Positions 9,001 to 12,000 of a stretch of 24,873 bases of DNA are shown piece after piece. A program made the position numbers. The stretch lies in the IMG/VR virus record IMGVR_UViG_2609459852_000004; one strand, given 5' to 3'. How positions within the stretch are numbered: the stretch's first letter is position 1; every line of letters starts with the position of its first letter. Origin of the DNA: a virus. Taxonomy: Duplodnaviria > Heunggongvirae > Uroviricota > Caudoviricetes.

Positions 9001-12000
9001 GCACGCCGGACAACATTTTCTGGGGAATTAACACCCTGTTTGGCCCGTTTGTTCTGGATCTGTTCACTGACGGTGATAACGCCAAATGTGCCGCGTATTA
9101 CACGGCGGAAGACAACGCGCTGGCGCATGACTGGTCAGAACGCCTTGCGGGGCTTAAAGGTGCTGCCTTTGGTAATCCTCCATACAGCCGCGCCAGTCAA
9201 CATGATGGGCAATACATCACCGGCATGCGTTACATCATGAAACATGCCAGTGCCATGCGTGATAAGGGCGGGCGCTATGTTTTCCTGATCAAAGCTGCCA
9301 CCAGCGAAGTGTGGTGGCCGGAATATGCAGATCATATTGCTTTTATTCGTGGGCGTATTGGTTTTGAACTGCCTGTCTGGTTTATCCCGAAAGACGAGAA
9401 GCAGGTACCGACAGGAGCTTTTTTCGCTGGTGCTATTGCTGTTTTTGACAAGACCTGGAAGGGACCGGCAATCAGCTACATCGGGCGCGATGAACTTGAG
9501 GCATGTGGTGAGGCGTTTCTGGCGCAGGTTCGCCAGCAGGCGGAAAAACTGGTCAGGGAGATGGCGGCATGACGACGTTAACTCAATGCCAGCAGCAGGT
9601 GCTGGATATGCTGATTTCTTATCAGAAAGAACGTGGCTTCCCGCCAACCAATCAGGAGGTGGCAACCATGCTGGGATACCGTTCAGTGAATACAGCGGTG
9701 GAGCATCTTCGCGCACTGGAGAAAAAAGGCGTCATCACGATAAAGCGTGGCGTGGCCCGGGGGATCACGCTTCATACCGCGGTGAAGGACGACGACAGCG
9801 AGGCGGTCGGGATTATCCGCGCACTGCTTGCCGGTGAGGAAAACGCCAGGCTGCGTGCAGCCTACTGGTTACATGAGAGGGGCCTGAAAGTATGAAGCTG
9901 ATTCTGCCTTTTCCGCCCAGCGTGAACACGTACTGGCGACACCCCAACAAAGGGGCGTTTGCAGGTAAGAGCCTGATAAGCGCGGCGGGGCGCAAATTCC
10001 AGAGCGCGGCGTGTGCAGCAATAGTTGAGCAGTTACGTCGTCTGCCAAAACCAACGTCGGCACCTGCTTCAGTGGAGATCGTGTTGTTTCCTCCGGATAA
10101 CCGGATCCGCGATCTGGACAACTATAACAAGGCGCTGTTTGACGCCCTGACCCACGCGGGTGTGTGGGAAGACGACAGCCAGGTGAAAAGAATGCTGGTG
10201 GAGTGGGGACCGGTTATCCCGGAAGGGAAGGTCGAGATCACTATCAGTAAGTACGAGAAAACGGCGGGTGCAGCCGCCTGATCAAGAGGAGAAACGAAGT
10301 ATGAATAATCTGATGGTCATTGATGGTATTGAAGTTCGTCGTGATGCTTATGGGCGTTACAGCCTGAACGATCTGCATAGGGCTGCTGGTTCTCTGGATA
10401 AGCATAAGCCTGCATTCTGGCTCCGCAATGAGCAAACTGAGCGTTTAATAAGCGAGTTGCAGATTTGCAACTCGGTCAATATAGAGCCAGTTAACGTTAT
10501 TCGTGGCGGAAATAACCAGGGGACGTATGTCTGCAAAGAACTGGTGTATGCCTATGCAATGTGGATCAGCCCGTCATTCCATCTGAAGGTGATCCGTACT
10601 TTCGACATGGTAACCAGCGCACCGGAAAAATTATCCGGACAGGCTGCTGACAAGATGCAGGCTGGCGTGATCCTGCTGGACTTTATGCGCCGGGAATTAA
10701 ATCTGTCTAACTCATCAGTGCTTGGAGCCTGTCAGAAGCTTCAGGAGGCTGTTGGCTTACCGAATCTGGCACCGCGCTATGCCATTGATGCTCCTGCTGA
10801 CGCGCCTGATGGCTCAAGTCGCCCCACGCTGTCGCTGAGTGCACTGCTGAAGCAGTATGGTATCCGCCTGACGGCTAATCAGGCATATCACCAGATGGTG
10901 AAGCTGGGGATCGTTGAACAACGCGAACGATACAGCCGTACCGCGATTAACAACATCAAAAAATTCTGGTCGCTGACCGCGAAAGGCTGCATGTTCGGCA
11001 AGAACATCACCAGTCCTGCAAATCCGCGCGAGACGCAGCCGCATTTCTTCGAATCCCGATTTCCTGAGCTGTTAAAGCTGCTCGATACCGTTCATTGAGG
11101 TGACTGTGAGAGCACTACTGACCCCTGAAATTGCCCCGCGTATGGGGATCGTATTGTTCAGGCCAGGTTCAGAGCTGATGCCCCTGTTTATGCAGGGGCG
11201 TGTCCTGCTGGAGCCTGAGCCGGAGCGTTATTCATCTTTCGCCAGTGGTGCCGTTCCGGCGGCATCACAACCGCTGGCGGATGATCCTGCCGTTCGGGCC
11301 GTGTTCCGCAATGAGGCAGTGATCCGTCGTGCTGGTGGTGTGGAATGTCTTGAAAGCTGGTTACTTCGTGAAAAGGGCTGTCAGTGGCCTCATTCCGGCT
11401 GGCACAGCGAGAACATGACAACAATGCGACACGCGCCGGGCGCAATCCGTCTGTGCTGGCACTGCGATAACCAGTTGCGCGATCAGTTCACGGAACGGCT
11501 GGAATCAATGGCAACGGATAACTGTGCCCGCTGGGTGTTGTCTGTTGTGCGTCGGGATCTCGGTTTTGATGACAGTCACGTTGTGACAATGCCTGAACTG
11601 TGCTGGTGGCTGATTCGTAATGATCTGGCGGATGCCTTACCGGAAAGTGCAGCCCGTAAGGCACTGAGATTACCGAAGCCTGTTGTGCCGTCTGTCACCC
11701 GGGAAAGTGATCTTGTGCCTTCGGTTCCTGCCACCAGCATCATCCAGGATAAAGCGAAAAAGGTGCTGGCGCTGAAAGTGGATCCGGAGTCGCCGGAGTC
11801 TTTTATGTTACGCCCAAAACGTCGCCGCTGGGTTAATGAAAAGTACACGCGCTGGGTTAAGACGCAGCCGTGCGCATGTTGCGGAAAGCCTGCTGATGAT
11901 GCCCACCACCTGATTGGTCATGGTCAGGGTGGAATGGGTACAAAAGCGCATGACCTTTTTGTGTTGCCTTTGTGCAGAAAACACCATGACGAACTGCATG

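Follow-up and report, generated by a model that had tools for sequence, protein, structure and literature searches.

The 24,873-nucleotide stretch of viral DNA analyzed here, referred to as the window (IMG/VR record IMGVR_UViG_2609459852_000004, Caudoviricetes), is a lambdoid prophage, 78% of which aligns with phage PhiR49_1 at 97% identity. Between genes for a Dam-type methyltransferase and a RusA resolvase, it carries a gene for a 108-amino acid protein composed of a LexA-type DNA-binding domain (LexA-DBD) and a C-terminal tail (Table 1). The protein matches the Pfam family LexA_DNA_bind (PF01726) with E=4.6e-19 and 68.4 bits (cut-off 23.7), its residues 1–65 covering profile positions 1–65 of 65, and is 42% identical to Escherichia coli LexA by BLASTP (residues 1–90 versus 1–86, E=4e-21). 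Among solved structures, its sequence is best matched by 1lea, the LexA N-domain, and 3jso, a complex of LexA with DNA. Two AlphaFold2 models were obtained, with predicted local distance difference test (pLDDT) scores of 81 and 86, and superposition on 3jso and 1lea with Foldseek gave a root-mean-square deviation (rmsd) of 1.0–1.2 Å over 67–69 residues at 48–50% identity.

The part of LexA that carries out cleavage is missing. No profile match to Peptidase_S24 occurs in the 108-amino acid protein; the S24/dimerization domain with its Ser119/Lys156 dyad is missing, and the chain ends at residue 108. The NCBIfam equivalog for lexA (TIGR00498) gives 70.4 bits, below its cut-off of 110.95, and only positions 1–91 of 203 are matched. 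The original prediction, made from the sequence alone, had described a LexA N-terminal winged-helix domain without a protease domain, and had named a profile search against LexA_DNA_bind and a superposition on the LexA N-domain as checks. Both checks agree with that description, as do the sub-cut-off TIGR00498 score and the 1lea and 3jso matches. Its claim of immunity to RecA-stimulated self-cleavage also holds, since self-cleavage is impossible without a protease domain. We conclude that the window encodes a genuine LexA-type winged-helix domain from which the S24 peptidase is missing. A PADLOC search with the 108-amino acid protein gave no defense-system membership and only a marginal match, of the winged helix-turn-helix type, to a CARF model (E=1e-4).

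The tail that follows the DNA-binding domain is more than a stump. The final ~38 residues form a conserved two-helix module, with helices at ~75–88 and 93–103 in both AlphaFold2 models, and a Foldseek search found no structural match to this hairpin in the PDB. The PHROG 362 profile, matched with E=9.4e-58, spans the tail as well (residues 1–108 versus positions 1–106 of 106), and the tail is kept in relatives at 38–48% identity (P0122, P0124, P0125, P0127, P0132, P0133, P0137, P0145, P0152, and P0166). Among 167 unique alleles, the ratio of nonsynonymous to synonymous substitution rates (dN/dS) comes to 0.31 in the DNA-binding domain and 0.36 in the tail. Purifying selection acts on both, and thus the protein is not a decaying fragment. 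A conserved hairpin under purifying selection is a new observation for the LexA-DBD family. LexA dimerizes via its C-terminal (protease) domain. Because that domain is missing here, the modeled hairpin is probably a dimerization or partner-binding module.

The statement that the protein ends without the Ala-Gly cleavage site or the Ser/Lys dyad is correct for the dyad but not for the dipeptide, as A88-G89 is present and aligns with the LexA scissile bond. This dipeptide sits at the end of a predicted helix in both AlphaFold2 models and is not conserved, being replaced in relatives with LLANEE and LLVGEE and having Ser at position 88 in 71 of the 167 unique alleles. Its location inside a predicted helix and its replacement in many relatives suggest that it is probably the vestige of a truncated lexA-like ancestor.

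The LexA contact residues with which the protein was compared were drawn from secondary sources (PMC3091678, PMC11442139, and bioRxiv 10.1101/2020.07.14.201889). S39, N41, A42, and E45 are the main readers of CTGT in LexA (PMC11442139), N41 and E45 being base contacts and R28 a backbone contact (bioRxiv 10.1101/2020.07.14.201889), and E44 is also among the contact residues (PMC3091678). The window allele keeps the base readers S39 (just before the recognition helix), N41, and E45, and has Val in place of E44 and Asn in place of R28. Codon 42 (9692–9694), which specifies a DNA-contact residue, is Thr in the window allele and Ala in LexA and 164 of 167 unique alleles. Among window-type and P0127-type alleles taken together, S39 and N41 are each found in 167/167, A42 in 164/167, and E45 in 140/167. 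The loss of two charged residues, R28 and E44, could tune affinity. Judged from these alignments, the family looks close to LexA in its reading of CTGT, yet looks free of the constraint expected of a strict mimic.

Table 1. Features of the LexA-DBD gene, its product, its neighbors, and the cI region in the window.
Feature	Position	Strand	Evidence or remark
Protease-less LexA-like protein gene	9569..9895	+	Open reading frame (ORF), 108 aa; PF01726, phrog_362
Shine-Dalgarno-like AGGGAGA and Dam/LexA-DBD ATGA overlap	9555..9572	+	Sequence
LexA-DBD stop/RusA start ATGA overlap	9892..9895	+	Sequence; second cassette boundary
Upstream Dam-type N6-adenine methyltransferase	8886..9572	+	PF05869, E=2.6e-44; PADLOC MTase_II
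Downstream RusA Holliday-junction resolvase	9892..10281	+	PF05866, E=6e-15
LexA-type winged helix-turn-helix, residues 1–70	9569..9778	+	AlphaFold2; helices 6–22, 28–35, 40–52, strands 56–58 and 66–68
Recognition helix, residues 40–52, VNTAVEHLRALEK	9686..9724	+	Alignments with LexA
Flexible acidic linker AVKDD, residues 71–75	9779..9793	+	pLDDT <50 in both models; length varies in relatives
Family-specific two-helix hairpin, residues 75–103	9791..9877	+	AlphaFold2, pLDDT ~88–90; not in LexA
A88-G89 dipeptide, aligned with LexA Ala84-Gly85 scissile bond	9830..9835	+	HMMER and BLASTP (LLAGE versus VAAGE)
Sole strong SOS box of the window, TACTGTTTTTACATACAGTA	4928..4947	.	Inside cI linker codons 70–77 (SNTVCKNS); score 24.7
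cI with own S24 domain	4464..5156	-	Profile match

The gene overlaps both of its neighbors. AGGGAGA at 9555–9561 lies 7 nt before the LexA-DBD start codon; this ATG (9569–9571) overlaps the Dam stop codon TGA (9570–9572) to form ATGA at 9569–9572, and the LexA-DBD stop codon TGA (9893–9895) overlaps the RusA ATG (9892–9894). The translational coupling to Dam on the 5' side and RusA on the 3' side put forward in the original prediction is supported: both ATGA overlaps are present in the sequence. In two loci without the gene (L265 and L291), the Dam stop overlaps the RusA start, with the junction ...GGCATGAAGCT..., and in 7 of 77 loci having a 100% identical RusA, Dam lies directly upstream with no LexA-DBD gene (L292–L371). 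The LexA-DBD gene therefore behaves as a cassette with precise limits at the two ATGA overlaps, and these junctions and gene-less loci make it dispensable, that is, accessory and not essential.

The order (methyltransferase)–LexA-DBD–RusA–(KilA-N or Rha/ANT)–DUF968–Q is kept in relatives at 38–48% identity and spans three replication modules (Phg_2220_C; DUF1376 and lambda P; DnaT and a DnaC-like protein). Of 254 instances, 228 have RusA no more than 600 nt downstream and 250 have DUF968 within 3 kb, counts that are not independent. RusA is the most constant neighbor of the LexA-DBD gene.

The genes of the window prophage run in the order cI, cro, CII-like, Ash+Rha, O-like replication, PerC-like, Dam, LexA-DBD, and RusA, followed by KilA-N, DUF968/HNH, Q (PF06530), a porin moron, lysis genes, and lambda-like head genes. 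The genes from cro to Q share one strand and are tightly packed or overlapping, and the rightward early ('nin') operon holds the LexA-DBD gene after the replication genes and before Q. No promoter-like site was found upstream of the gene in the scanned region (8300–12700), the four sites there all lying downstream, from 10602. SOS boxes were scored with a matrix built from ~30 E. coli boxes, and every SOS box cited here is also a literal CTGT-N8-ACAG. No SOS box scoring at least 10 lies within 4 kb upstream of the gene, and the operon in the window is not fronted by a canonical box. No weak box lies near the gene either; only three hits of at least 7 occur in the window, which matches the shuffle expectation apart from the box in cI. 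From the packed single-strand run between cro and Q, and with no promoter or SOS box just upstream, we infer that the LexA-DBD gene is a delayed-early lytic gene and not a lysogenic one. The idea that it sets the induction threshold of its own prophage is unlikely, because the gene would be expressed as a delayed-early lytic gene and the prophage has a self-cleavable cI; the gene lies deep in the early operon with no promoter or SOS box of its own.

Other features of the window were recorded alongside. The Ash+Rha fusion (387 amino acids, 6055–7218) lies between the CII-like and replication genes. A CTGT-N8-ACAG sequence inside it (6158–6173) was considered as a LexA site and rejected, its SOS-matrix score being below 7. 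The porin moron (12685–13827, minus strand) encodes a complete Gram-negative porin (Porin_1, E=1.7e-151; OmpD in PhiR49_1) and separates Q from the lysis genes. Inside the lysozyme gene (14703–14723), CTGTAT-N9-ATACAG resembles an SOS palindrome but is wrongly spaced and probably due to chance.

The gene is 96–99% identical across 50 phage records. Its carriers are SfV (orf42), SfII, SfIV, mEp460, cdtI, phage 1720a-02, Stx2a_1447/WGPS2, fifteen Stx2c phages, and the PhiR and vB_Eco series, in whose records the product is labeled 'LexA DNA binding domain protein', 'LexA-like protein', or, wrongly, 'SOS-response repressor and protease LexA'. It is found in 2233 of 5426 complete E. coli genomes (41%), with up to four copies each. 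Stand-alone LexA-DBD proteins of 65–150 amino acids are predicted in many unrelated phages too. Proteins of 140–230 amino acids (P0128, P0136, P0138, P0139, P0144, P0148, and P0160) have two tandem LexA_DNA_bind stretches, an arrangement that might make them single-chain 'dimers' of the LexA head. The LexA-DBD protein itself is already catalogued, in PHROG 362 as a phage 'transcriptional repressor' and in RefSeq as 'LexA family transcriptional regulator', a name also given to Eru-phage repressors (PMC8044961). A survey of Stx phages lists it without comment as 'pham 237, LexA family transcriptional regulator, pfam01726' (PMC8136144). New here are the selection on the hairpin, the precise cassette, the deep conservation of gene order, and the SOS-box/DinI/RecA setting of a sister clade.

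This setting emerged from an SOS-box scan of ~210 related loci (2.73 Mb), in which 116 strong boxes were found. Type A loci comprise the window clade, which has an S24 repressor in 78 of 88 loci, and the P0127 clade, which has one in 75 of 83; this repressor is of the self-cleaving kind, and the gene is within the early operon and has no box upstream. Type B consists of the P0132 clade, likewise a part of PHROG 362 (P0132, E=3.4e-38), and has an S24 repressor in only 5 of 36 loci. A small phrog_1813 ORF, a candidate antirepressor, is directly upstream of the LexA-DBD gene in 30 of these 36 loci, most of which have a near-consensus SOS box 440–660 nt before the gene (~1.5 kb before it if RecA comes between). 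Between box and gene, 20 of the 36 loci have a DinI homologue (PF06183, E ~1e-21) and 3 have a RecA homologue (PF00154, E=1e-130). A promoter-like site (TTGCAA-17-AATAAT) abuts the SOS box in L010, and a strong terminator precedes it in L190. The gene is in an operon fronted by a canonical box in sister-clade loci including L010, L012, and L184–L204.

The full arrangement of the sister-clade operon is terminator, SOS-box promoter, DinI or RecA, phrog_1813, LexA-DBD, and sometimes RusA, DUF968, and Q (L010, 5531–6408; L012, 5561–6357; L184, L190, and others). Because the gene shares a box-fronted operon with DinI and RecA homologues, the LexA-DBD protein of the P0132 clade would be co-expressed with SOS modulators under host LexA control. 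This operon is the strongest indirect evidence for a role of the family in SOS regulation. It resembles the LexA-controlled antirepressor modules of coliphage 186 (Tum), Salmonella Gifsy phages, and N15 (PMC8044961) in having a non-cleavable repressor and an SOS-box-fronted operon that opens with small proteins, and differs from them in that it also encodes the LexA-like protein without a protease and, in many loci, a DinI or RecA homologue. The window prophage differs from these modules in its S24 cI and in having no SOS box upstream of the gene. DinI is a small SOS-induced protein that damps SOS, but it has an unrelated fold and targets RecA filaments rather than DNA operators. No dinI homologue was detected in the window.

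Other features were noted in these related loci. An intergenic element of ~45 nt, GGCCTGAACAACC...ACCTGCTGCGCCACGGAGA...CCATGGCGCA, lies between phrog_1813 and the LexA-DBD gene (L010, ~5962–6003; L012, ~5996–6050; L184, ~6950–7003) and is conserved while the coding regions on both sides diverge. RNAalifold predicts, on weak evidence with no covariation, a hairpin (UGCGCCA/UGGCGCA) whose loop holds the Shine-Dalgarno sequence and whose stem holds the AUG. L010 has an RNase_A_bac toxin gene and a CdiI_2-like immunity gene inserted immediately before the SOS-controlled operon (3863–5232, minus strand), and L012 has an AcrVA2-like gene beside a Cas1-like gene (9794–11390, minus strand).

The one strong box of the window is near-consensus and lies within cI; 0.03 such boxes are expected per shuffled window. 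The arms of its palindrome are conserved among cI alleles, while nearby codons are variable, and no consensus promoter was found flanking it. This box is a candidate phage-borne target of the LexA-DBD protein, at which a roadblock, an internal promoter, and an antisense promoter are possibilities. SOS boxes are also found at other genes in related loci. In PhiR49_1 (L001, 7972–7991) and SfIV (L002, 6765–6784), a strong one occupies the intergenic stretch ahead of the KilA-N gene, which suggests that a KilA-N or antirepressor-like gene may be under LexA control in these phages. The window has no such box, the RusA and KilA-N ORFs overlapping there. Another box, TACTGTAAAAATAAACAGTG, is conserved and sits where a second adenine methyltransferase gene begins, in the late region downstream of Q (L004, 9920–9939; L012, 8739–8758; and 25 window-type IMG/VR loci).

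What is secure is that this is a functional, widespread, accessory gene of lambdoid phages whose expression in the lytic program is implied by its operon position. As to its function, we tentatively favor, with confidence a little short of even, an uncleavable repressor that would bind SOS-box-like operators and re-impose LexA-type repression once host LexA is gone. The protein would be made only on infection or after inactivation of cI, that is, when host LexA is destroyed or being destroyed. Its kept CTGT readers (S39, N41, and E45, with A42 in almost all alleles) would direct it to SOS-box-like operators, and its hairpin would substitute for the dimerization that LexA gets from its protease domain. 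With no self-cleavage and a C-terminus unlike the end that cleavage opens to ClpXP on the LexA N-terminal fragment, it would persist and could re-close LexA operators during lytic growth, both at host SOS genes and at phage-borne boxes such as the one in cI. Also in favor of this reading are the SOS-box/DinI/RecA operons of the sister clade, the frequency of phage-borne SOS boxes in carrier loci, the presence of the gene in all 13 phage-database records with the cI allele of the window, and the failure to find a repeated alternative palindrome in the window.

Comparison with LexA and its fragments bears on these steps. The phage protein has the same winged-helix fold as LexA (rmsd ~1 Å, 42–50% identity) and retains S39, N41, and E45; besides the missing S24 domain and dyad, with a score below the TIGR00498 cut-off, it differs in the window allele by R28N, A42T, and E44V, in the extra C-terminal hairpin, and in being encoded by a phage gene in an early lytic operon. 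On its own, the N-terminal fragment of LexA still binds SOS boxes and represses, and SOS induction requires its removal by ClpXP (PMC10584840). The phage protein is like this fragment (LexA 1–84) in being without the protease/dimerization domain. It ends in ...GLKV and not in the cleaved Ala84, and because its C-terminus is unlike that end, it would not be degraded by ClpXP as the natural fragment is.

Several observations weigh against repression of SOS-box-like operators. Position 28 is never Arg and position 44 never Glu (it is V or A), the window allele has the rare T42, and E45 is replaced by Ala in 25 of 167 alleles, by Leu in the SPNAVALHL sub-clade, and by Ile in L012 (SQNTVFIHL). The SPNAVALHL sub-clade, with Leu for E45, is the one most tightly tied to upstream SOS boxes. 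On alignment, this variability of the recognition helix looks more like diverging specificities than like strict mimicry. Any strong SOS box at all is present in only 8 of 83 P0127-type loci. The box in cI was considered as dependent on the LexA-DBD gene, which accompanies the cI allele of the window in 13 of 13 phage-database records (10 phages) and in 56 of 62 eligible IMG/VR loci. This dependence was rejected, as the box is kept in loci without the gene; since the gene-less loci keep it and the prophages are near-identical, the co-occurrence may be plain linkage. Targeted literature searches found no functional study of the LexA-DBD family, only catalogue mentions.

These points lead to the main alternative, which we consider possible and clearly less probable: a phage regulator whose LexA-derived domain has drifted to another operator, and which switches phage genes (in nin, late, or moron timing) and spares host SOS boxes. 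Bacillus thuringiensis tectivirus GIL01 provides the precedent, which itself counts against binding of SOS boxes. Its gp6, a truncated LexA homologue and the one characterized phage protein of the LexA-DBD-only kind, recognizes the palindrome GaCACAnnTGTGaC, which is not a LexA box and overlaps the -35 element of the late promoter P3 that gp6 activates (PMC6182141). Known here by its published description, gp6 resembles the present protein in being phage-encoded and essentially a LexA DNA-binding domain, and differs in being without the C-terminal hairpin, in binding GaCACAnnTGTGaC, and in activating P3. Drift would also fit the variation of positions 42–45 by clade (SVNTAVEHL, SPNAAAEHL, SPNAVALHL, and SQNTVFIHL), the loss of R28 and E44 everywhere, the absence of an SOS box from most P0127-type loci, and the frequency of stand-alone LexA-DBD proteins in unrelated phages. 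Against it, a de novo search of the window for a repeated palindromic alternative operator, such as that of gp6, found none, and the window-type consensus retains all four main CTGT readers. The family occurs in lambdoid phages of Enterobacteria, in which late genes are already controlled by Q, and the sister-clade SOS-box/DinI/RecA operons point to SOS biology.

An improbable alternative is that the protein is an accessory factor for phage DNA transactions carried out with RusA, DUF968/HNH, and often the methyltransferase, for example in targeting junction resolution. ruvAB is a member of the LexA regulon, and in a hybrid form of this idea, the protein would shut off host ruvAB and free junctions for RusA. 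The close placement of RusA, the next gene downstream and often overlapping in its codons, and of DUF968 speaks for such a factor, as does the preservation of this order in distant relatives with three replication modules. The same synteny may simply reflect a co-inherited nin block, however, and the partners are separable: RusA occurs without the LexA-DBD gene, both in the 7 of 77 identical-RusA loci and at the precise deletions, and many P0132-type loci have the LexA-DBD gene but no RusA. The fold is moreover a classical sequence-reading winged helix-turn-helix with conserved reading residues.

That the gene is a functionless, decaying remnant of a captured lexA is very unlikely: residues ~77–90 still resemble the LexA hinge and cleavage site (SEAVGIIRALLAGE versus EGLPLVGRVAAGE), fitting an origin by truncation, and the cassette is dispensable in some prophages, but conservation over the full length down to 38% identity, the intact frame with coupled start and stop, and above all dN/dS and prevalence led us to reject a pseudogene. 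Intermolecular cleavage by the C-domains of LexA and cI has been described, and we give equally little credence to a decoy or trans-substrate in which the segment with Ala88-Gly89, aligned with Ala84-Gly85 of LexA, engages either the active site of host LexA, UmuD, or phage cI, or else RecA*, and modulates cleavage, since the dipeptide is inside a confidently predicted helix and is Ser-Gly, Ala-Asn, or Val-Gly in many relatives.

In its broadest form, which we regard as doubtful, repression of SOS-box-like operators would mean that a RecA-proof LexA surrogate is carried by prophages in ~40% of E. coli genomes, Stx2a and Stx2c phages among them, and re-closes LexA operators after induction, so that the phage and not the host times the end of SOS; the sister-clade operon, with its DinI or RecA homologues, would then be an SOS-triggered and self-limiting 'anti-SOS' unit that makes a pulse of LexA derepression. 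If this were true, the effects would reach mutagenesis, SOS-controlled toxins and colicins, antirepressors under LexA control in rival prophages, and possibly also ruvAB, to the benefit of the co-encoded RusA. If SOS boxes are bound, a large share of E. coli, Shigella, and Shiga toxin-producing E. coli strains would carry a damage-proof phage repressor of the SOS regulon, with a bearing on the duration of SOS mutagenesis and of toxin and colicin expression after prophage induction, on competition between co-resident prophages whose antirepressors are LexA-controlled, on the dynamics of Stx-phage induction, and on how SOS reporters are read in lysogens. If the target is another one, a LexA head would have been recruited as a phage regulator for a second time, independently of GIL01 gp6, and the tail of the family would be a new dimerization or partner-binding module.

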